Shown here: positions 2,713-29,941 of the stretch, in pieces | How positions within the stretch are numbered: position 1 is the stretch's first letter | How the letters are laid out: each line of letters begins with the position of its first letter | UHGV virus genome: UHGV-1364013 | Length of the DNA: 46,305 bases | DNA from: a virus | Strand: one strand, 5' to 3' | The notes under the pieces: generated by a model | Seen by the model: only the letters and a program-made list of their open reading frames with translations | The model's database searches: none | Told to the model about the DNA's origin: nothing | Program-made: the position numbers and the translations under genes

Positions 2713-3039
2713 TGGATTGACATCCTCCCCCGCCTGAAGTCGGGGGATTCCCAGCGGAGGCAATCTTGCGATTGCGTCCCTGAGCGGGTTCCTGCTTCAC
2801 CGAGACTGCCCAGAGGAACAAGGCTTGGTTTTCGCCGCAAACATTCCCACGTGGGGAATTTTACGGGTACGAACCAACCGCCTATTCCCCCAGGTCTCAC
2901 CATCTCTCCACAGGCTGACACGGCATGCCCTGCCGCCGTGTCACCTGTTAGCAAACAAAGGCAGGAAAGTCAAAATTCCAGTTAAGGTGCGCCTTATATC
3001 CTCCCCCTAAAGGGCGAGGCTTTACGGCGCTTTGGGTAA
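2711..3039 (-). mobile_element. IS200/IS605-derived MITE/PATE, inverted relative to the full IS; no tnpA or tnpB
   Basis: Reverse-complement RE hairpin at 2712-2747 and reverse-complement LE at 2975-3035, including the ccagcgcgccgtaaag-like end. Reverse-complement TTAC target (GTAA) at 3036-3039. Interior shares cgggttcctgcttca and aattccagttaaggtgcgcc with the full IS. Confidence 0.55.
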
Positions 3040-9281: not shown

Positions 9282-9527
9282 TCATGCCGCCACCCCCACC
9301 TTTTCAAGAACAGCGTCGATTCCGCCAGCCTCATCGACAAGGAGGCAGTCCGTGATGGGCCATGTTGGGACAAGTTCGCCATTGTCCCATTCCGCCGCCC
9401 AGAGGTTCCAGCCGTCCCTTGTAGCCTTAAGGAACGACATCACGGCTGCGGGTGAATCGAAAAAGCGTCTGACCGTCCCGCCGTAGAGCGAGTTCCCGGT
9501 TTCGATGCAGAAGAATGTTTGAGCCAT
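9282..9527 (-). CDS. Hypothetical protein
   Basis: SD aggag before ATG 9527. Confidence 0.4.
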   Translation of the reverse strand: MAQTFFCIETGNSLYGGTVRRFFDSPAAVMSFLKATRDGWNLWAAEWDNGELVPTWPITDCLLVDEAGGIDAVLEKVGVAA

Positions 9528-9604
9528 AATCTTTCTCCTACGTTGAAGTTTGGATTGTCCCAATCCCGATCAAAAAGCCCCGATGAATCGGGGCTTCTAC
9601 GGGG

Positions 9605-9787
9605 CTAGGCAGGAATCTTAACCAGAGCGTGCATAAAACCGGGCTTGAAGCGGCTTTTACCGTTGCTTGCCCAACACCATCCAGATGGGCCTCCTGCGGA
9701 TTCGTTCCATACCCATCCATAGGGGAGTCTTTCGAGCTTCATGATTGAAGGGTTATCAAGCTGGCTTTTGCGCTTGCGTGTTTTCAT
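9605..9787 (-). CDS. Hypothetical small basic protein
   Basis: SD aaaggagacgat before the ATG. Confidence 0.4.
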   Translation of the reverse strand: MKTRKRKSQLDNPSIMKLERLPYGWVWNESAGGPSGWCWASNGKSRFKPGFMHALVKIPA

Positions 9788-16079: not shown

Positions 16080-16419
16080 TCTGTCCTTGGGCTGGTTCAT
16101 GTTTGAGTGCCCAAGGTATTGTGAAATCTTCGGCCCCGGTGCGTGTGTTGGGGTATTTGACAAAAAGGAGTGTGTGGTCAACAACCCCTGCCTAAAGGCA
16201 GAGGCTTGATAAAAGCCTTGGTTGACTAGCCTCAGACCGCCCAAAAGGCGGACTACGTTGGTTGGGAATGCATAGGCACCGCGGGATGACAATCCTAGTC
16301 CCGCGCTCTGCGGTTCGCGGTTAAAAGCTCTGAGAGGTAGGAGCGGTGCCGCGAACAGGTAAACCCCTTCCAACATTGGCGAAGGATTACAACCGGTCGC
16401 AAGACCGAGGAGACAAATC
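16080..16419 (+). ncRNA. Structured non-coding region (many G.U-compatible hairpins, nested long-range pairing); candidate ncRNA
   Basis: Stems: ccttgggc/gcccaagg; ctgcc-taaa-ggcag; aggctt-gata-aagcct; ccgcc-caaaa-ggcgg; cgcggga/tcccgcg nested inside ggcaccgc/gcggtgcc. No convincing ORF. Confidence 0.35.
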
Positions 16420-16902
16420 TTGAGAGTATTTGTTTTAAACAAACGAGGGCAACCGCTGATGCCGTGCTCACCGGCAAAAGCGATGAGCACATACAGGGAA
16501 GAATCGTTGTCGGAAACACTGCAAGACATGTCCGACCGTTTCGGAAAGCCCTTTGTCCGGCACATGATTGAACGCTTCGCGGGTATAACTCTTATTATTC
16601 CCGTCAAAAGCCGGAAGACGCGGCTAGCTCGGGAATTGTGCACCTTCTTGGGGCAGGATGCCCTTTCCGACTTTCTGCACACCTATGGCGGTACGAGAAT
16701 CTATATCCCCACTTTGCGCCGGGCGAAGATCCGCGCACGGGACATGGACATCAACGCCGAGCGGGACGAGTTGGCTCGCAAGGGGCTGAGTGAAAGAGCG
16801 CTTGTCGCCAGGCTCGCCACGCTGCACGGGCTTTCCGAACGGCAGGTGTGGCGCATTTTAAAACAGCCGAGAACCTCGGACAACAGGGAGGCGGCGTCAT
16901 GA
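16420..16902 (+). CDS. Mor/C-family late transcriptional activator with an N-terminal 20-aa RRXRR/PLMP-like segment (TTG start)
   Basis: C-terminus YGGTRIYIPTLRR...ELARKGLSERALVARLATLHGLSERQVWRILKQ is Mor-like. N-terminus (L)RVFVLNKRGQPLMPCSPAKA. SD gaggag 7 nt before the TTG. Confidence 0.5.
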   Translation: MRVFVLNKRGQPLMPCSPAKAMSTYREESLSETLQDMSDRFGKPFVRHMIERFAGITLIIPVKSRKTRLARELCTFLGQDALSDFLHTYGGTRIYIPTLRRAKIRARDMDINAERDELARKGLSERALVARLATLHGLSERQVWRILKQPRTSDNREAAS

Positions 16903-19613: not shown

Positions 19614-19626
19614 TATTTTTCTTTAT

Positions 19627-19670
19627 CCAGCGCGCCGTAAAACCTCTCCCTTCAGGGGGAGGATATAAAG
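19627..19670. repeat. Solo IS605 left-end (LE) hairpin copy after TTAT: ccagcgcgccgtaaaacctctcccttcagggggaggatataaag
   Basis: About 85% identical to the LE of the full IS at 23742-23790. Its ggagga provides the SD for terS. Confidence 0.55.
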
Positions 19671-20224
19671 TGGGAGTTGTGAGCATGGCGTCAAGATTTG
19701 ATTGGGAATCCATCCGTGCCGAGTACGAAGTAGGGGCGAGCCAGTCCGATCTGTCCAAGCGTTACGGTGTGAGCCGGACAGCCATCCAAAAGCGCATCCG
19801 GGCCGAGGGCTGGGTGCAGGACATTTCCGGCACCGTGAACCGCATGGCGGAGGCCAAGGTTGTGGGCGTGGTTGCAGGCTGCAACCCTCAAAAAAAGGCC
19901 GAAGCCTTGGACCGCGCCGCCGAAGCCAAGGCCGCCGTCATCACCCGCCACCAACGGGAGTGGGATCGACATCAGGCCCTCATTGATGAGGCGTTGTCCC
20001 TGGGCAGCTTCGACAAGGCCAAGCTCGCCAAAATCACAGCCGAGACGATCAAGATCCGGCAGGAGGGCGAGCGCAAGGCGTGGGGCATCGTTGACAAAGC
20101 CGCGTTGGATCACACTTCATCCGACGGTTCGCTATCTCAGCGTCCGGTGGATCTCTCGCACCTCTCTCCGGACGAGCTGCTTCGCCTGACAAAGGAAGCC
20201 TTCAAAACGCCGGATCATGAGTAG
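19670..20224 (+). CDS. terS: Terminase small subunit (HTH-containing); alternative ATG start at 19685
   Basis: Lies directly upstream of terL. N-terminal HTH LSKRYGVSRTAIQKRIR. Stop overlaps the terL start. Confidence 0.5.
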   Translation: MGVVSMASRFDWESIRAEYEVGASQSDLSKRYGVSRTAIQKRIRAEGWVQDISGTVNRMAEAKVVGVVAGCNPQKKAEALDRAAEAKAAVITRHQREWDRHQALIDEALSLGSFDKAKLAKITAETIKIRQEGERKAWGIVDKAALDHTSSDGSLSQRPVDLSHLSPDELLRLTKEAFKTPDHE

Positions 20225-23200
20225 CCCCGCCATCCTTTCCGATATCCGGAAGGCGCTGGCCCGGAGCTGTCTCGCGGCCTTCGTGCGCTACACCATGCCC
20301 GGCTACCGCATGGGATGGGTGCATGAGGAAATCTGTTCCGAGCTGGACGCCTTCCTTGCCGATGTCGTAGCTGGACGTTCCCCGCGCCTCATGCTGACCA
20401 TGCCCCCGCGACATGGGAAACTGTGCGCTGATGATACTCCTGTTTTGACGGTTGATGGGTGGAAAACTCATGGTGCGCTTAAGGTTGGTGATTATGTATT
20501 TCACCCAAGTGGCAAACCTGTGAGGGTTGTTGCTGTGGGCGAGAAAAATTTTGCCACTCATTCTGTTGTTTTTACCAATGGCGACATAATAGATGTGCAC
20601 CTTGATCATGAGTGGCGGGTGTATGACAGGACTAAACCCGGATATAGAACAGTTGAGACACGATACTTTGTGGAGCCAAGCAAAAAAACTAAGGCGCTTA
20701 GGAAGCTGGATAGCGGTATCCCAGACACCAGAGGGCACAGGTATTTGTATCAGGTGGACACAGCTGATGCTCCCCAATGGCCTGCCGTAGAACACGTTAT
20801 CCCGCCATACGTTTTGGGCGTGTGGTTAGGTGATGGAACGTCAATCGCGCCCAGAATAAACATGGCTCCTGATGACGCTTGTGTCGTCAAAATGGAGTTT
20901 GAACGACTAGGTGTGCCAATAACTGGAACATGGGTGCATAGAGATACTGGAGTTGAAACTTTTTCATTTGCCAGCGGCGTGAAAAATAGAAGAAATATAT
21001 TTTCGCAGGCTCTAAAAGATGCTGATCTGCTAAAAAATAAACATATTCCTAATGAGTACAAGCATGATAGCCTAGAAAACAGGCTTGACTTGCTTGCTGG
21101 ACTTATTGATACGGATGGTCATTTTGATAGAAAGACAAACAGATATCGTTTTACAACATCCAATGAGCTGTTAGCGCATGATGTAGAAGAATTGGCCATG
21201 CTATGCGGGTTTGTAGCGCATACAAATATCCCAGCACTAGATAATCGGGAAAGAACGATTAAAAATAAGTCACAGGTTTATGTGGTGTCATTTTTCTTTT
21301 CCGGTGTAGTTGTCCCGTGCAGACTTGAACGGAAAAAAGTTAATAAAACGTTTTCTTCTCTGCGTCGGCGCGTATCCATCAAATGTGTACGAGCGCTAGA
21401 GTCGCCTAAAATGGGGAATTGTATTCAGGTGGATAGTCCAGATGGCTTATATTTAGTTGGCAAACACCTTACGATAACCCACAATAGCGAGCTGGCCTCC
21501 CGCCGCTTCCCGGCCTACGCCTTGGGCCGCTACCCCGATCTATCCGTCATTTCAACGAGCTACGCCGCCGACCTGTCCTCGCGCATGAACCGCGATGTTC
21601 AGCGTGTCATCGACAGCCCGGAATACCGGGAACTCTTCCCGGGAACAGCCCTTTACGGCAAGAATATCCGCACCGTCGGGAACGGCTCTTATCTCCGCAA
21701 CTCGGATATCTTCGAAATCGTGGGGCACGCTGGCTGCTACCGTTCCGCTGGCGTGGGCGGCGGCATCACGGGCATGGGTGGGCATATCGTCATCGTCGAC
21801 GACCCGTTCAAGGACCGGGCGTCCGCCGATTCCCCGACCATCCGCCAGAACGTCTGGGACTGGTACACGTCCACGTTGTACACGCGCCTCGCGCCCGGTG
21901 GAGGGGTGCTCATCATCAACACTCGCTGGCACATGGCTGACCTTTCCGGGCGGCTGCTTGAGGCCGCCGCACGGGGGGAGGGCGACCACTGGCGCGTGGT
22001 AAACTTCCCGGCCATCGCCACGGAGGATGAGCCGCACCGCAAGGCAGGTGAAGCCTTACACCCTGAACGCTACCCGTTGGAGCAGCTTCTTGCCATCAAG
22101 AAAGCCCTCGGCACACGCGACTGGGAGGCCCTGTACCAGCAGCGGCCTACGCCAGACGGCGGCGCCATCTTCAAATCCGAGTGGCTGCGGTTCTGGCTCC
22201 CCAAAGACCTGCCGGAGCAGTTCGACCAGCTCCTTATCTCGTGGGATATGACGTTCAAGGACGGCGACGATACCGACTTTGTTGTGGGGCAGGTGTGGGG
22301 CCGCAAGGGGGCAGACCGCTACCTCCTCGATCAGGTCCGGCGGCGCATGGGATTTACGGACACGGTCGCCGCGTTCCGGGAGCTCGCCGCCAAATGGCCC
22401 GGCGCAGCCCGCAAGCTGGTGGAAGACAAGGCCAACGGCCCGGCGGTCATCGACGCGCTGAAACACGCCGTGCCCGGTATCATCCCCGTGGAGCCGGACG
22501 GCAGCAAGACGGCTCGCGCCCATGCTGTGACCACGTTCTTCGAGGCCGGGAACGTCCTTATCCCGCACCCTGAGCATTGCCCGTGGGCGCGGGAGTACGT
22601 CGCGGAACTGACGCAGTTCCCCGGAGCGCCCCACGACGATCAATGTTTTGCTGCAGGCACTTTAGTTGCGACTTTGCGAGGGGGTATCCCAATTGAAAAA
22701 GTAAAGGAAGGTGATTTTGTTGTGACTCCTCAAGGGTTTAGGCGTGTGTTGTTCGCTGGAAAAACCGGAGAGTCTGTGTTATTGTATCGACATGGAATTT
22801 TTGCAACTGCGAATCATCCGTTCATGAAAACCAGTGGAGAAGTTTGCAAATTTGCAGAAATAGAAAAGTCTGAACTTGTTCACATGACTATAAGGGAGTT
22901 GCTAGTATGGATATTCCGAAAAGAGTTGAATTTAATGGCGTCACCTATGCCCTCATGGCAGGGGGGAAATACTATCTTAGTCAGTCAAAAACAAACGCAG
23001 GTGGGAAAAATCCGAAGGGGCTTCATGTCGCTATTTGGGAATACTACAGTGGCAAGAAAGTCCCTAAAGGGTATGAGATTCATCACAAAGATGGTAATAC
23101 ACATAACAACAATTTTGACAACCTTGAGTGTTTATCACGTTGTGAACACCGCAAAACGGTTAAGCAAAACAAAGAAAAATGCCGTAAGCACCTTGAAGAA

Positions 23201-23717
23201 GTACGCCCTCTTGCTACTGAGTGGCACAGGAGCGAAGAAGGCCGTGCATGGCATCGAGAGCAAAGCAGGAAGGCATACGCAAAAAGAGAGTATACTGAGC
23301 ATGTTTGTGAGTACTGCGGCAAGACGTATAAAACGCGCCATACGGGAAAAAACCGCTTCTGTTCCCATAATTGTGAAATCAAATGGCGATATCACAATGA
23401 ATACGAGCTTGCCGAGGGTGTGTGCCAATGGTGCGGCAAACCGTTCACATACAAGACCGGAACCTGCAGAAAAAACAAAGTACGTAAATTCTGCAGCAAG
23501 TCTTGCAGCACAAGCCACTTCAACGCCCAACGCCGTGCCAGTGTATAACCTCACCGTAGAGGGCGAGCACCTTTATTTTGCTAATGGGGTGCTCGTCCAC
23601 AATTGTGACGCCACCACGCAGGCCCTCCGCGACTTCGATACCAAGCGGCCCATGTGCATCGACACCCGGATACTGCGCCAGCCGCGCATGGAGTTGAGGC
23701 GCATTGGGGGGATTTGA
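20217..23717 (+). CDS. terL: Terminase large subunit precursor with two inteins (mature protein about 493 aa)
   Basis: Exteins carry the P-loop PRHGK(L|S), the ATPase motif VIVDDPFKD and the nuclease domain. Intein boundaries are C...THN|S and C...VLVHN|C. Confidence 0.8.
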   Translation: MSSPAILSDIRKALARSCLAAFVRYTMPGYRMGWVHEEICSELDAFLADVVAGRSPRLMLTMPPRHGKLCADDTPVLTVDGWKTHGALKVGDYVFHPSGKPVRVVAVGEKNFATHSVVFTNGDIIDVHLDHEWRVYDRTKPGYRTVETRYFVEPSKKTKALRKLDSGIPDTRGHRYLYQVDTADAPQWPAVEHVIPPYVLGVWLGDGTSIAPRINMAPDDACVVKMEFERLGVPITGTWVHRDTGVETFSFASGVKNRRNIFSQALKDADLLKNKHIPNEYKHDSLENRLDLLAGLIDTDGHFDRKTNRYRFTTSNELLAHDVEELAMLCGFVAHTNIPALDNRERTIKNKSQVYVVSFFFSGVVVPCRLERKKVNKTFSSLRRRVSIKCVRALESPKMGNCIQVDSPDGLYLVGKHLTITHNSELASRRFPAYALGRYPDLSVISTSYAADLSSRMNRDVQRVIDSPEYRELFPGTALYGKNIRTVGNGSYLRNSDIFEIVGHAGCYRSAGVGGGITGMGGHIVIVDDPFKDRASADSPTIRQNVWDWYTSTLYTRLAPGGGVLIINTRWHMADLSGRLLEAAARGEGDHWRVVNFPAIATEDEPHRKAGEALHPERYPLEQLLAIKKALGTRDWEALYQQRPTPDGGAIFKSEWLRFWLPKDLPEQFDQLLISWDMTFKDGDDTDFVVGQVWGRKGADRYLLDQVRRRMGFTDTVAAFRELAAKWPGAARKLVEDKANGPAVIDALKHAVPGIIPVEPDGSKTARAHAVTTFFEAGNVLIPHPEHCPWAREYVAELTQFPGAPHDDQCFAAGTLVATLRGGIPIEKVKEGDFVVTPQGFRRVLFAGKTGESVLLYRHGIFATANHPFMKTSGEVCKFAEIEKSELVHMTIRELLVWIFRKELNLMASPMPSWQGGNTILVSQKQTQVGKIRRGFMSLFGNTTVARKSLKGMRFITKMVIHITTILTTLSVYHVVNTAKRLSKTKKNAVSTLKKYALLLLSGTGAKKAVHGIESKAGRHTQKESILSMFVSTAARRIKRAIREKTASVPIIVKSNGDITMNTSLPRVCANGAANRSHTRPEPAEKTKYVNSAASLAAQATSTPNAVPVYNLTVEGEHLYFANGVLVHNCDATTQALRDFDTKRPMCIDTRILRQPRMELRRIGGI
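20424..21485 (+). mobile_element. Intein 1 (354 aa) with a LAGLIDADG homing-endonuclease domain, inserted in the terminase Walker-A loop
   Basis: Starts CADDTPVLTVDGW. Contains LDLLAGLIDTDGHF. Ends ITHN followed by +1 Ser. AT-rich relative to its flanks. Confidence 0.75.
22644..23603 (+). mobile_element. Intein 2 (320 aa) in the terminase nuclease domain
   Basis: Starts CFAAGTLVATLRGGIPIEKVKEGDFVVT. Ends GEHLYFANGVLVHN followed by +1 Cys. AT-rich. Confidence 0.7.
22907..23548 (+). CDS. HNH endonuclease ORF nested out-of-frame inside intein 2
   Basis: HHKDGNTHNNNFDNLECLSRCEHRKT is an HNH motif. C-terminal CxxCGK..RFCSxxC repeats. Frame offset +2 relative to terL. Confidence 0.65.
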   Translation: MDIPKRVEFNGVTYALMAGGKYYLSQSKTNAGGKNPKGLHVAIWEYYSGKKVPKGYEIHHKDGNTHNNNFDNLECLSRCEHRKTVKQNKEKCRKHLEEVRPLATEWHRSEEGRAWHREQSRKAYAKREYTEHVCEYCGKTYKTRHTGKNRFCSHNCEIKWRYHNEYELAEGVCQWCGKPFTYKTGTCRKNKVRKFCSKSCSTSHFNAQRRASV

Positions 23718-23810
23718 GGCTGCGTGGGACCCACGCGTTACCCAGCGCGCCGTAAAGCCTCGCCCTTCAGGGCGGGGATATAAGGCGCACCTTAACTGGA
23801 ATTTTTGCCT

Positions 23811-24227
23811 TTAATTGGGCGTTCGTTGAGCTTCGATATACTGCCGCAGGACAGAGATAGGCGCTCCTCCGCAGCTTCCAGCAAAATAACTTGGCGACCA
23901 GAGTGAACCGCCCCAGAGTTTTTTCTGGATCGAAGGATAGCCTTTCTTGCGAATCAGCCTGCTGGATACGCCTTTCAGGCTGTTGACCAAAGACGAAATG
24001 GCTACTTTTGGAGGATAGACGACAAGCAGATGAACATGATCGTCTTCCCCGTCAAATTCAATAAGTTCCGCCTCAAAATCACGGCAAACACTGGCAAATA
24101 TTTCCTTCAAGTCGTCAAGAATGACCTTTGTGAAGACGCCATAGCGATACTTTGTAACAAAGACCAAATGGGCATGAAGAAGGAATACGCAGTGTCTTCC
24201 AGTACGAATATCGTTGACTTTTTTCAT
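23811..24227 (-). CDS. tnpA: IS200/IS605 Y1 HUH transposase TnpA
   Basis: HUH motif HVHLLV and catalytic Tyr region SPSYF. 138 aa. Confidence 0.85.
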   Translation of the reverse strand: MKKVNDIRTGRHCVFLLHAHLVFVTKYRYGVFTKVILDDLKEIFASVCRDFEAELIEFDGEDDHVHLLVVYPPKVAISSLVNSLKGVSSRLIRKKGYPSIQKKLWGGSLWSPSYFAGSCGGAPISVLRQYIEAQRTPN

Positions 24228-24241
24228 AGGCCAACTATGAT

Positions 24242-25450
24242 TTGGCTATGGAAAGATTGCAAGCCTACAAGTTCCAGCTCCGCCCCAAAGCTGAGCAGGA
24301 AAGCCTCATGCGGCGTTTTGCCGGATGTTGTCGTTTCCTTTGGAACAAGGCGCTTGCATTGGAAAAAGAGACCTATGAAAAGGAAGGGAAGCGTCTGGGG
24401 TTTTCCTTGCTCTGCGAAGCCCTTCGGGACTGGAAGAAGGAAAACGACACATCTTTTCTTGCTGAAGCCCATTCTCAAATTCTGCAACAAGCGTTGAAAG
24501 ATCTCGATAGGGCCTACAAAAATTTCTTTGCCAGGCGTGCGGATTTTCCGCGTTTCAAGAGAAAGGGGGTTCATGACGCCTTTCGCTATCCGCAAGGTTT
24601 CAAGCTCGATGAAGGCAACAGTCGCATATTTCTACCTAAAATTGGGTGGGTACGCTACCGCAACAGTCGTAAAATAGAGGGAACACCGAAACAGGTGACA
24701 GTTTCTTTGTCCGCAGGGAAATGGTTTGTTTCTATTCAGACGGAACGAGAAATTCTTGAACCGGTGCATCCTTCGCAAAATATTGTTGGCATAGACATGG
24801 GAGTTGCGCGTTTTGCAACGCTCTCCGATGGTTCTTGCATCAAACCGCTGCACAGTTTCCGAAAGCATGAAAAGAAGCTGGCAAAGCTGCAACGCAAATT
24901 GGCAAAACGAGTGAAGTTTTCCGCCAGCTGGCAGAAGCTCAAAGCCAAAATACAGCGCCTGCACCGTACAATAGCCAATGTACGCAACGATTTTCTGCAC
25001 AAGACAACAACGATGATCAGCAAAAACCACGCTCTTGTCGTGATTGAAGATTTGAAAGTGCGGAATATGTCGCGTTCGGCTTCCGGTACGCTTGAAGTTC
25101 CGGGCAAAAATGTGCGCGCCAAGTCCGGCTTGAACAAGTCCATACTGGATCAGGGATGGTTCGAGTTTCGGCGGCAGCTTGAGTACAAGTTGAAATGGCT
25201 GGGTGGAAAGCTGGTTGTCATACCTCCGCAGTATACCAGTCAGACATGCAGTCATTGTGGATGCGTAGACAGAGCAAACAGACCAACGCAGGCGAAATTC
25301 AAATGTACGGCCTGCGGATTTGAATGTAACGCCGACCATAATGCGGCGTTGAACATTCTGGCGGCCGGGCAGGCCGTGACAGCCTGTGGAGCGGGAAGGG
25401 CTCAAGCGCCCGCATTGAAGCAGGAACCCGCCTATGGCGCGGCTCGTTAG
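24242..25450 (+). CDS. tnpB: TnpB (OrfB_IS605; RuvC-like RNA-guided nuclease with a Zn ribbon)
   Basis: RuvC motifs GIDMG, VIEDLKV and NADHNAALNI. Zn ribbon CSHCGC...CTACG. Confidence 0.85.
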   Translation: MAMERLQAYKFQLRPKAEQESLMRRFAGCCRFLWNKALALEKETYEKEGKRLGFSLLCEALRDWKKENDTSFLAEAHSQILQQALKDLDRAYKNFFARRADFPRFKRKGVHDAFRYPQGFKLDEGNSRIFLPKIGWVRYRNSRKIEGTPKQVTVSLSAGKWFVSIQTEREILEPVHPSQNIVGIDMGVARFATLSDGSCIKPLHSFRKHEKKLAKLQRKLAKRVKFSASWQKLKAKIQRLHRTIANVRNDFLHKTTTMISKNHALVVIEDLKVRNMSRSASGTLEVPGKNVRAKSGLNKSILDQGWFEFRRQLEYKLKWLGGKLVVIPPQYTSQTCSHCGCVDRANRPTQAKFKCTACGFECNADHNAALNILAAGQAVTACGAGRAQAPALKQEPAYGAAR

Positions 25451-25841
25451 AGCCGCTACCGATAGGAATCCCCCGACTTTAGGCGGGGGAGGATGTCAAC
25501 CCAGTACTATGTAGCCTGCTGTAATGGTAGACTATTTTTTTTGAAATCGTAACCCCTCCGTACCTTGACTTCTTCCAGCTTTTGTGCTGTTCTTTTTTCA
25601 CGGTGCTTCAAAACACCTTCGCTGGCGGTAGCCAACCCCGAAACGTGGCCTTTTTTGTGCCCTGTCAAGACTTGTATCCTCTTGGCTGTGGTGTATCCTA
25701 CGGACATTGACTCCGGGTGTGGGCTAATACAATACCGATTCGTCGGGAATATGCCCGCTGTCCAGCGACAGTTTTGAGCACCCGGAGTTTTGCTATTTTG
25801 GCGGCTCCAATGAAAGGTGTCCGACATCCATGCACCCGAAC

Positions 25842-25887: not shown

Positions 25888-27432
25888 ATGAGCAAGAAGC
25901 GCACTTATCGACACGCCACCTCCATACCCCAAGTGCAACCGTCGCGTCGTCTGAATCTCTCCCCGGACGTGCGCGACGGCCTTGCTCAATCCTTGCCGCC
26001 TACGCCCGACGACATCAGCCGGTTGTACGGCCCTGCGAAGACGCTCGGCGCGCCCGAAGATGTGCAGCTTGCGATGGATGCGCGGCTTGCGGATTCCGGC
26101 GTCTATTCCCTGCTCCAGCACTCGCTTGAGCTTGGGGTCGGGATTGCGCCGCAATTCATGGGCTACGGCGTCCTCCAGAACCTTGCCCAGAACGGCCTGA
26201 TCCGTGCCTGCGTCGAGACGGTATCCGACGATATGACCCGAGCATGGATTGAGTTCAAGCGCGAAGGGGAGGGCGGCGACGAGTCATTGCTCACCGACCT
26301 TGCGCAGGCGTGCAATAGGTTCGCACTGCAACGCCTTTTCCATGAGGCGACCGAGCTTGTGGGGTACGAGGGCGGGGCCTTCCTTTTCATCGACACCGGG
26401 TCCGTCGGCCAAGAGCTGGAACGCCCGCTGAACGTCAGCCCGTATTCCGCCGAACTCAGGCCCGGCGGCGTGCTGCGCTTCGTCGTCATCGACCCCGTGA
26501 ACGTCTTCCCCGGCGACTACAACAGCCTTTCACCGCTTGAGCCGGACTACTTCCGCCCGCGCTGGTGGTGGGTGCTCGGGCAGCGGGTGCACGCCTCGCG
26601 CCTCATCCGATTGGTTGCAAACGAATGCCCGGTGCTGCTGCGGCCCGCCTACAATTTTTTGGGCATCCCGCAGGCGCAGATCCTCTGGGATTACGTCCTG
26701 CATTTTCAGGAATGCCGCGCCGCCGAAGCCCGGCTACTGACCAAGTTTTCGCTGACCGTCTTCAAGACGAAGATGGAAGATATCCTGTACGCGTCCGGGG
26801 GCACGGCACAGATCGATGCCCGCATCCGGTACATGATCCAGTCCATGACCAATGACGGCGTGCTTGCCGTCGACAAGGAATCGGAAGACGTGGTCAAGCT
26901 GGAAACCCCGCTTTCCGGCGTGACCGACATCGTGCGCCAGTCCCTTGAAATCCTCGCTGCCCTGAACCGAACCCCTGCGGTCAAGCTGCTTGGCATCAGC
27001 CCGTCAGGGTTCAATGCCACGGGCGAATCGGACATCCGCAACTACTATGACCATGTCAGGAGCCAGCAGGAGAAAGTCCTGCGCGACGGCATCAAGAAGG
27101 CGCTCGACTGTATCCAGCTCTACCTGCGCGGAACCATCGACCCGTCCGTGACGTTCGACTTCGCACCCCTTGGCGAAGAAGACAGAGCGGCCCTTGCGAC
27201 GCTCCAGAAGACCAAGGCAGACACCATCGCCGTCTACATGGATCGGGACATTATCTCTCAAGAAGAGGCCCGGCAGTCCCTTGCCAGTGACCCGGACAGC
27301 GGCTTCTCCGACATAGACCCGGCGGAAGTGCCGCAGGGCAACGGAATGCCCGACGCCCTGCCGGAAGCCGGGGAAGGGGGCTTGATGCCCGACATCGACG
27401 ACGTGGACAAGGCAGGGGCCGTCTATGGCTAA
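25888..27432 (+). CDS. Portal protein (Mu gp29/DUF935-like)
   Basis: 514 aa. Positioned between terL and the Mu-F-like gene. C-terminal acidic tail. Confidence 0.6.
   Translation: MSKKRTYRHATSIPQVQPSRRLNLSPDVRDGLAQSLPPTPDDISRLYGPAKTLGAPEDVQLAMDARLADSGVYSLLQHSLELGVGIAPQFMGYGVLQNLAQNGLIRACVETVSDDMTRAWIEFKREGEGGDESLLTDLAQACNRFALQRLFHEATELVGYEGGAFLFIDTGSVGQELERPLNVSPYSAELRPGGVLRFVVIDPVNVFPGDYNSLSPLEPDYFRPRWWWVLGQRVHASRLIRLVANECPVLLRPAYNFLGIPQAQILWDYVLHFQECRAAEARLLTKFSLTVFKTKMEDILYASGGTAQIDARIRYMIQSMTNDGVLAVDKESEDVVKLETPLSGVTDIVRQSLEILAALNRTPAVKLLGISPSGFNATGESDIRNYYDHVRSQQEKVLRDGIKKALDCIQLYLRGTIDPSVTFDFAPLGEEDRAALATLQKTKADTIAVYMDRDIISQEEARQSLASDPDSGFSDIDPAEVPQGNGMPDALPEAGEGGLMPDIDDVDKAGAVYG

Positions 27433-28207: not shown

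Positions 28208-29941
<1,734 letters not shown>

Follow-up and report, generated by a model that had tools for sequence, protein, structure and literature searches.

The stretch of DNA analysed here, the 46,305-nucleotide (nt) virus genome UHGV-1364013 (hereafter the window), carries an insertion sequence (IS) of 1,758 base pairs between the genes for the large terminase (terL) and the portal protein. We consider it very likely that this is an intact, recently active IS200/IS605 element, with an IS605-style gene layout and IS608-style ends, that was inserted 3' of the tetranucleotide TTAC by the transposase TnpA. The IS spans positions 23742..25499; it lies directly 3' of TTAC (23738..23741) and has TCAA at its right terminus. 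These limits were set by ten copies in other contexts, identical at 1758/1758 positions, which stop there. All ten are delimited as TTAC/CCAGCGCG…GGAGGATGTCAA/ (a slash marks a junction; also written TTAC/CCAGCG...GGATGTCAA/). An original prediction, made from the window alone, had placed the element at 23738..25501; it identified the element correctly, and its limits took in the 4-nt target on the left and two flanking bases on the right.

The IS encodes both proteins expected of a complete IS605-family element. tnpA (23811..24227, minus strand) encodes a Y1 HUH single-strand DNA transposase of 138 amino acids (aa), which matches Pfam Y1_Tnp over its full length (4.4e-43) and the NCBIfam IS200/IS605 transposase model NF033573 at 146 bits against a cutoff of 55. 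The closest solved structure is that of ISDra2 TnpA (2XM3, 5.8e-23), IS608 TnpA (2A6M) scoring 9e-20, and both the HUH motif (DHVHLL) and the C-terminal QYIEAQ with its catalytic tyrosine align to ISDra2 TnpA. tnpB (24248..25450, plus strand) encodes an RNA-guided RuvC nuclease of 400 aa from the ATG at 24248, or 402 aa from a TTG at 24242. Its product matches Pfam OrfB_IS605, Cas12f1-like_TNB and HTH_OrfB_IS605 as well as NCBIfam NF040570 ("RNA-guided endonuclease TnpB"; 1.3e-114, 383 bits against a cutoff of 100), and the IS200-type model scores higher (317 bits) than the IS607-type model (186 bits). ISDra2 TnpB is the closest solved structure (8H1J, 1.1e-53; 8BF8, likewise ~1e-53), the RuvC D/E/D residues (in GIDMG, IEDL and NADHNAALN) and the zinc ribbon being in register with its catalytic positions. 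Family matches and catalytic residues thus bear out the earlier call of a complete element with divergent HUH TnpA and RuvC TnpB.

The start codons of the two divergent genes are ~20 nt apart. A sigma-70-like promoter candidate for tnpB (24214..24241, plus strand; TTGACT-16-TATGAT, 10/12), which is a consensus match only, lies inside the 5' end of tnpA, and a scan of the element found no terminator-like site on its plus strand. GC content is 0.46-0.54 within the IS, against ~0.61-0.65 in the adjoining phage genes. An open reading frame (ORF) of 257 aa runs antisense to tnpB (24632-25405, minus strand) and is probably fortuitous; a translated reverse-strand ORF in tnpB of a cyanophage and its host is described in a recent preprint.

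The ends of the element carry the IS608 recognition code. In IS608, the left and right cleavage sites (CL, TTAC; CR, TCAA) are read by guide tetranucleotides (GL, AAAG; GR, GAAT) located 5' of the hairpin feet (PMC3201880, PMC5934647). All four tetranucleotides are identical here. CL is the TTAC at 23738..23741 (plus strand), which precedes every identical copy, stays on the flank and is also the predicted transposon-adjacent motif (TAM) of TnpB. Within the left end (LE; 23742..23810, plus strand), GL AAAG (23754-23757) stands immediately 5' of the left imperfect palindrome (IPL; core 23758-23777, extended 23747-23788). The transposase signals of the right end (RE; 25466..25499, plus strand) comprise GR GAAT (25466-25469), immediately 5' of the right imperfect palindrome (IPR; 25470-25489), and CR TCAA (25496-25499), with cleavage predicted after 25499. 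Indeed, identity between copies ends exactly past this TCAA. Folding gave -21.7 kcal/mol (z -2.79) for the LE hairpin at 23747-23788 as DNA and -15.7 kcal/mol (z -2.46) for the RE hairpin at 25469-25490. Subterminal hairpins at both ends and a left end abutting an IS608-type target, both foreseen in the original prediction, are therefore upheld, the first by folding and the second by the TTAC before all ten identical copies. The termini, CCAGCG… and …GATGTCAA, form no terminal inverted repeat, and the LE and RE palindromes differ. A 35-nt RE motif and a 25-nt LE motif each occur once more in the window, where shuffles expect 0.

Comparison of family members extends this code beyond the single element. 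Lineages with an AAAG guide are inserted after TTAC in 6/6 cases, those with AAAA after TTAT in 12/14, so that the GL/CL rule is kept in 18/20 lineages (one-sided Fisher p ~2e-4, the lineages not being phylogenetically independent). Judged by these alignments, the last base of the target covaries with the last base of the internal guide among family members, which we read as a natural occurrence of the target re-setting rule known from IS608 engineering.

The copies elsewhere place the element in motion and in bacteria. A public-assembly index holds the exact TnpB protein in 655 blocks. Ten metagenome loci were retrieved, one of them the window's own scaffold, and the IS is 1758/1758-identical in all ten. 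The 100% identity of copies at many other sites implies very recent activity. The ten copies lie in at least seven distinct left and six right contexts, with no repeat common to the left and right flank and no sign of target-site duplication. One locus from the human gut (L172; ENA ERZ28580130, sample SAMEA4545370) was considered as an independent phage with the same insertion and was rejected, since 100% identity to the window over 9,203 nt marks it as the window's own scaffold. Two loci, L170 and L177, have a common left flank and different right flanks, and one right flank, with a Hydrolase_4 and an AadA_C-domain gene, is common to L171/L176, L174 and L179, which have three different left flanks. 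Either recombination mediated by the IS or chimeric assembly over the 1.76-kb repeat accounts for these mixed combinations.

At least 996 contigs encode the exact TnpA, and the annotation of Desulfovibrio piger includes a near-identical protein. A 33-nt right-end motif was found in 75 stretches of reference genomes, mostly of Desulfovibrio, Mailhella and Lawsonia; Tepidimonas and Burkholderiales also have it, with element identity there of ~65%. The best full-length match in a reference genome is 90.6%, in Desulfovibrio sp. Dsv1. By these sequence matches the IS is a bacterial element of gut Desulfovibrionaceae that has since entered the phage, its native host probably being the gut Desulfovibrio D. 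piger. A megablast search of positions 19.5-28.5 kb against GenBank phages found no related deposited phage and returned only a 249-nt tnpB fragment (MT839117). This fragment, nt 1-249 of MT839117.1 (L001), an unverified human-faecal 'Bacteriophage sp.' scaffold, is 100% identical to tnpB at 24965-25213; the remainder has no match to the window, and the scaffold may hold a truncated or rearranged copy or be a chimera. A megablast search of the IS against PLSDB returned only 37-41 nt of the right end, located after TnpB-only genes in two Pseudomonas paraeruginosa plasmids.

Related phages confirm that the segment is an insertion and not native phage DNA. The IS was found between terL and portal in 0 of 78 related loci fetched via the portal protein, and ~20 related phages with a readable terL-portal interval all lack it, while identical copies stand in bacterial contexts. 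The closest IS-free allele is that of L020/L081 (IMG/VR), and an independent human-gut contig, L180, carries the same allele. These contigs match the window at 99.8-100% in the terL exteins, at 100% over the 135 nt up to TTAC and at 99.7% over the 316 nt that follow the IS. Their junction reads …CACGCGTTACCCTTCCGTTAC/CCCAGTACTATGTAGCC… (in short form ...CGCGTTACCCTTCCGTTAC/CCCAGTACTATG...), with TTAC joined directly to the window's right flank.

An exact empty site is available for a sibling of the element. The relative phage L016 carries a 321-nt ORF-less mini-element at 9657..9337, and its empty site is present in the window at 28209-28234 (minus strand), reading GGTGACGCCTTTAC/TTTGATACATAG (also given as …CCTTTAC/TTTGATAC… and …GACGCCTTTAC/TTTGATACATAG…), within the first codons of a gene starting at 28211. 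This empty/filled pair establishes that TTAC is derived from the target and that the family inserts seamlessly in this phage lineage. The converse, that TTAC is borne by the element, was rejected, as TTAC is present in empty sites.

The right end has a second function in prospect, as the gene for a guide RNA. The predicted scaffold of this RNA (ωRNA, also termed right-end element RNA, reRNA) comprises the tnpB 3' end and the RE (25359..25499, plus strand; ~140 nt); its 5' limit is uncertain and its tail ends in TCAA. We aligned 27 non-redundant right ends from elements with identities down to ~64%. Five helices are supported both by RNAalifold and by an explicit pair count. On the plus strand these features are helix P1 (25362-25376; RNAalifold, covariation), a CCUG/CAGG helix (25383-25386 with 25421-25424) that encloses a hairpin at 25391-25413, a hairpin domain (25431-25466) and the terminal hairpin (25469-25490). 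In the pair count 95.8% of cells are paired, compared with 42-53% in slid controls, and 47 cells are changed on both sides, compared with 6-19. No shuffle in 500 reached the observed percentage paired, number of double-change cells, further pair types or covariation score, and in 2/500 the number of pairs with changes on both sides was at least as high as that observed.

Two variable domains lie between the invariant anchors CCUGUGGAG…GAAGCAGGAACCC…GGAAUCCCCCG, and although their sequences are unrelated they form hairpins at the same positions, interchangeable examples being GCGGCUC/GAGCCGC, CUCAUUCCGGC/GCCGGGGUGAG and GCAAUC/GAUUGC. The anchor-delimited segments were folded separately because MAFFT puts the variable hairpins out of register. 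Moreover, ORF-less mini-elements retain exactly the ωRNA region and the LE, as expected if the RNA, and not the coding sequence, is under selection. This conservation pattern shows that a structured RNA is encoded by the 3' end of tnpB together with the right end. The fold, the covariation and the retention in mini-elements sustain the earlier view of the right end as reRNA-capable. A search of the right end found no Rfam family at gathering thresholds.

The predicted guide is the right flank immediately beyond the IS, CCCAGTACTATGTAGCCTGC (25500..25519, plus strand), that is, CCCAGTACTATGTAGC(CTGC). The window has no second copy of its first 16 nt, which follow TCAA rather than TTAC, so the occupied locus offers no TAM and would not target itself. 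In the IS-free alleles of L020/L081 and L180, TTAC is followed by a 20/20-nt match to the predicted guide. We infer an ωRNA with ~16-20 nt of right flank as guide; its ends, guide length, TAM, expression and cleavage activity are all predictions.

These features suggest how the element might persist. Following the IS608/ISDra2 paradigm, TnpA would excise the top (plus) strand as a single-stranded circle and insert it on the 3' side of a further TTAC where DNA is single-stranded, as it is at replication forks. The predicted ωRNA, carrying the flank-derived guide, would direct TnpB to cut loci in which TTAC is joined directly to the right flank, whether in a copy from which the IS has gone or in a co-infecting sibling phage free of it. 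The IS would then be restored or spread through recombination with a genome that bears it (homing). Late read-through could be a source of both tnpB mRNA and ωRNA and leave portal expression unblocked, since tnpB is co-oriented with terL and portal and the IS has no terminator-like site on the plus strand.

Several observations weigh against this reading. One concerns the closest IS-free allele, which has 11 extra nt (CCTTCCGTTAC) between the TTAC junction and the left flank as found in the window. These 11 nt stand between two copies of a 7-nt direct repeat, GTTACCC. The insertion model must therefore assume a second event, such as a slippage deletion, or else a progenitor that was not sampled. 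The exact predicted empty site, …CGCGTTAC/CCCAGTAC… (in the 11-nt-free allele …CACGCGTTAC/CCCAGTAC…), was not found, and a 28-mer from the right flank occurs only in one IMG/VR and one metagenome contig, both of which carry the +11-nt allele. The search for related genomes with an empty site, proposed with the original prediction, thus recovered TTAC joined to the right flank in IS-free relatives, with an 11-nt indel in place of an exact site. In addition, the phage insertion is known from one assembly only, and the count of distinct insertion sites is of lower confidence, because the mixed flanks may stem from mis-assembly across the repeat. The GL/CL pairing rule is violated by 2/20 lineages. 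For the RNA, the two closest Rfam models score below their gathering scores, RAGATH-18 (RF03064) with 31.9 bits at 25383-25426 against 44.9, and HgcC (RF00062) with 19.8 bits at 25396-25512 against 50; by score these matches are a resemblance only, with no family membership.

Three other explanations were weighed against a recently active element. The first is that the IS is a fixed, silent passenger, intact in sequence and no longer mobile, whose TnpB and ωRNA have no role and which is tolerated in a permissive spacer. This spacer, a cargo hotspot, does tolerate lengths of 55-3,241 nt, and many relatives lack the IS, a situation that might not persist under a highly efficient drive. Set against this are the 100% identity to copies at many sites, with the very recent activity it implies, the intact state of all catalytic residues and of both ends, and a natural IS-free allele that still has the TAM and a perfect guide match. 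We regard a silent passenger as unlikely.

More doubtful still is that the element serves the phage as a weapon, in which TnpB and ωRNA would cut IS-free competitors at the terL-portal junction during co-infection and so bring about marker exclusion in the manner of homing endonucleases. The predicted target, TTAC with 20/20 nt, is present in co-circulating IS-free relatives from human gut samples, many other homing elements share the region, namely two inteins in terL, HNH genes and a HEARO RNA, and tnpB is co-oriented with the late genes. However, the case is purely inferential, it invokes the same mechanism as ordinary TnpB homing, and in most relatives the spacers differ and would escape targeting; a benefit to the phage is thus improbable. 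That a metagenome assembler threaded a high-copy bacterial repeat into the phage contig is barely credible. In its favour are the great abundance of the IS (655 index blocks; at least 996 contigs with TnpA), the inconsistent flanks in other contigs (L170/L177; L171, L174, L179) and the fact that the sole second sighting of the phage junction is the same scaffold. Against it, both junctions enter the same phage locus and follow the TTAC/ and TCAA/ rules, and independent IS-free assemblies have the two flanks 11 nt from each other. A repeat-induced chimera would link phage to bacterial DNA and not return to the same site. Sibling elements are also inserted in related phage contigs, one of them with an exact empty site in the window.

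Of the two phage genes that flank the IS, terL (20217..23717) has the domains Terminase_6N and 6C and two inteins, and portal (25888..27432) has Phage_portal_3. The IS sits 24 nt downstream of terL. The intervening left flank holds a hairpin, GCGTGGG-a-CCCACGC (23722..23736, plus strand), just past the terL stop codon (23715-23717); it belongs to the phage and not to the IS, and is also found in the IS-free relatives L020, L023, L025 and L050. Between the terL stop and the portal start, 6 relatives have a spacer of 55 nt and 14 have 886-3,241 nt with unrelated cargo; the window's spacer without the IS is 412 nt. Contrary to the tight packing assumed in the original prediction, the terL-portal junction of this group of phages is unconstrained and forms a cargo hotspot.

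The same prediction spoke of a portal late promoter preceded by the non-coding region to the right of the IS, and this promoter was not confirmed. We found no sigma-70-like promoter on the plus strand of the gap, in a scan that does not cover Mor-type promoters. The phage encodes a Mor-type late activator, that is, it is a Mor-encoding (Mu-like) phage, and the sigma-70 scan therefore says little about late promoters. The gap also contains an RNA of the sRNA-Xcc1 family at 25711-25795 (53.4 bits against a gathering score of 53), a family located in the literature upstream of symE or ORF6N-type genes. Directly after this RNA, L020 and L180 have a P22_AR_N antirepressor-like ORF together with an endonuclease I gene, neither of which the window has; the RNA may be the leader element of a moron cassette.

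The window contains further traces of the IS family. An ORF-less mini-element of 319 nt (2717..3035, minus strand), resembling palindrome-associated transposable elements (PATE-like), is preceded by TTAC at 3039-3036 and has an RE ending in TCAA. Its LE is 93% identical to that of the IS, and its ωRNA-type scaffold has an expanded central hairpin; more generally, the LE of the IS is 97-99% shared with ORF-less mini-elements. The guide predicted for this mini-element starts with TCCATAGAGAAAATCG…, and TnpB from the full element could serve it in trans. A perfect 40-nt palindrome at 2535-2574, TTGACATCCTCCCCCG-ACTTCAGG-CGGGGGAGGATGTCAA, corresponds to the RE hairpin with its 5' side swapped for the complement of the 3' tail, so that either strand reads as an RE. 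The palindrome occurs in three phage contigs, namely the window, L016 (6615-6649, in the terL-portal spacer of that relative) and L089 (11820-11854); candidate origins are an RE-RE junction, a unit like a repetitive extragenic palindrome (REP) or a terminator. A solo degenerate left end (19623-19673), TTAT/CCAGC GCGCCGTAAAACCTCTCCC… with GL AAAA, lies immediately upstream of a small-terminase-like gene and adjoins its start region; upstream of 19685 the window differs from L020.

Other selfish elements are also present. The first terL intein (20420-21483) has a LAGLIDADG_3 domain and interrupts terL after PPRHGK. In L020, terL is intein-free (491 aa) with exteins 99.8-100% identical to those of the window, and L003, L029, L036 and L050 have one or both inteins; these varied combinations indicate ongoing homing and recombination. 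The second intein (22644-23603) encloses an HNH_3 endonuclease ORF (22907-23548) in a frame other than that of terL, and the terL/intein frame is open through all 642 nt of the HNH ORF. This overprinted layout is kept in a distant relative, L071 (4602-6989, 6185-6853), whose portal is 49% identical and whose DNA is ~70% identical; between L071 and the window, the HNH frame is 52% identical (protein) and the intein frame, still open, 36%. The comparison suggests that dual-frame coding of a homing endonuclease within a mini-intein has been conserved. A HEARO RNA (IscB-type ωRNA) at 16177-16393 scores 141 bits against a gathering score of 83. The gene after it is not that of IscB and instead encodes a Mor-family activator (16420-16902); its first 21 codons match the RRXRR/IscB N-terminus, an apparent fusion of an IscB remnant to mor. 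A free-standing HNH_3 homing-endonuclease-like gene in a low-GC patch (1245-1862) adds to the genome's load of selfish elements.

We consider it possible, and only tentatively, that the IS takes part in an RNA-guided gene drive between co-infecting Desulfovibrio phages, in which TnpB, with ωRNAs of the full element and, in trans, of the ORF-less mini-elements elsewhere in the genome, would cut IS-free siblings at TTAC-flank junctions and so convert them or exclude their terL-portal region. If true, homing around terL, already the work of inteins and HNH genes, would gain an RNA-guided component. The element is also a well-documented natural example in that a single metagenomic data set holds an autonomous IS at 100% identity in bacterial and phage contexts, non-autonomous derivatives with a predicted ωRNA, exact empty and filled sites, and natural re-setting of the IS608 code (AAAG/TTAC versus AAAA/TTAT). 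The IS-bearing phage and a co-circulating IS-free phage with the predicted TAM and a perfect guide match form a testable TnpB homing pair. For annotation, the terL-portal junction of this phage group should be treated as a cargo hotspot.

The element combines features of several known systems. In IS605 of Helicobacter pylori, tnpA and tnpB are divergently transcribed between hairpin-bearing left and right ends, as they are in the window. Unlike in IS605, however, target and ends follow the IS608 code. With IS608, also of H. pylori, the element shares CL TTAC, GL AAAG, GR GAAT and CR TCAA in identical form (PMC5934647), insertion 3' of TTAC without duplication, subterminal imperfect palindromes, and a Y1 HUH TnpA with TnpB. 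From the IPR foot to the right cleavage site on its 3' side there are 9-10 nt, compared with 10 nt in IS608 (PMC3201880), whereas CL is 16 nt from the IPL foot, compared with 19 nt. Also unlike in IS608, where they lie on the same strand, tnpA and tnpB are divergent; TnpA is only remotely similar to the IS608 protein (phmmer E 9e-20), and the hosts here are Desulfovibrio and its phage.

The resemblance to ISDra2 of Deinococcus radiodurans lies in the proteins, for which it provides the closest solved structures and aligned catalytic residues, and in the ωRNA, which in ISDra2 derives from the tnpB 3' end and RE with a guide from the flank, and is predicted to do so in the window. The TAM and target of ISDra2 is TTGAT, compared with TTAC here, and the ωRNA sequences have no detectable similarity. 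Among the IS607 TnpB reRNAs, RAGATH-18 (RF03064; PMC11061315) has a consensus outer helix and internal loop into which the CCUGUGGAG…GAUGAAGCAGGAA module fits; the central part is much shorter here, and the partner protein is a Y1 TnpA, not an IS607 serine recombinase. Phage-borne TnpB or IS elements identical to host copies have been described before, and the transposition code and ωRNA logic are those of the textbook IS608 and ISDra2. In cyanophage A-1(L), for example, the tnpB element is identical to several copies in the host and is missing from closely related phages (bioRxiv 10.64898/2026.02.14.705889). In contrast to that case, the element described here is fully autonomous, with tnpA, both ends and a predicted ωRNA, and its boundaries, target rule and guide-matching IS-free allele are all defined.

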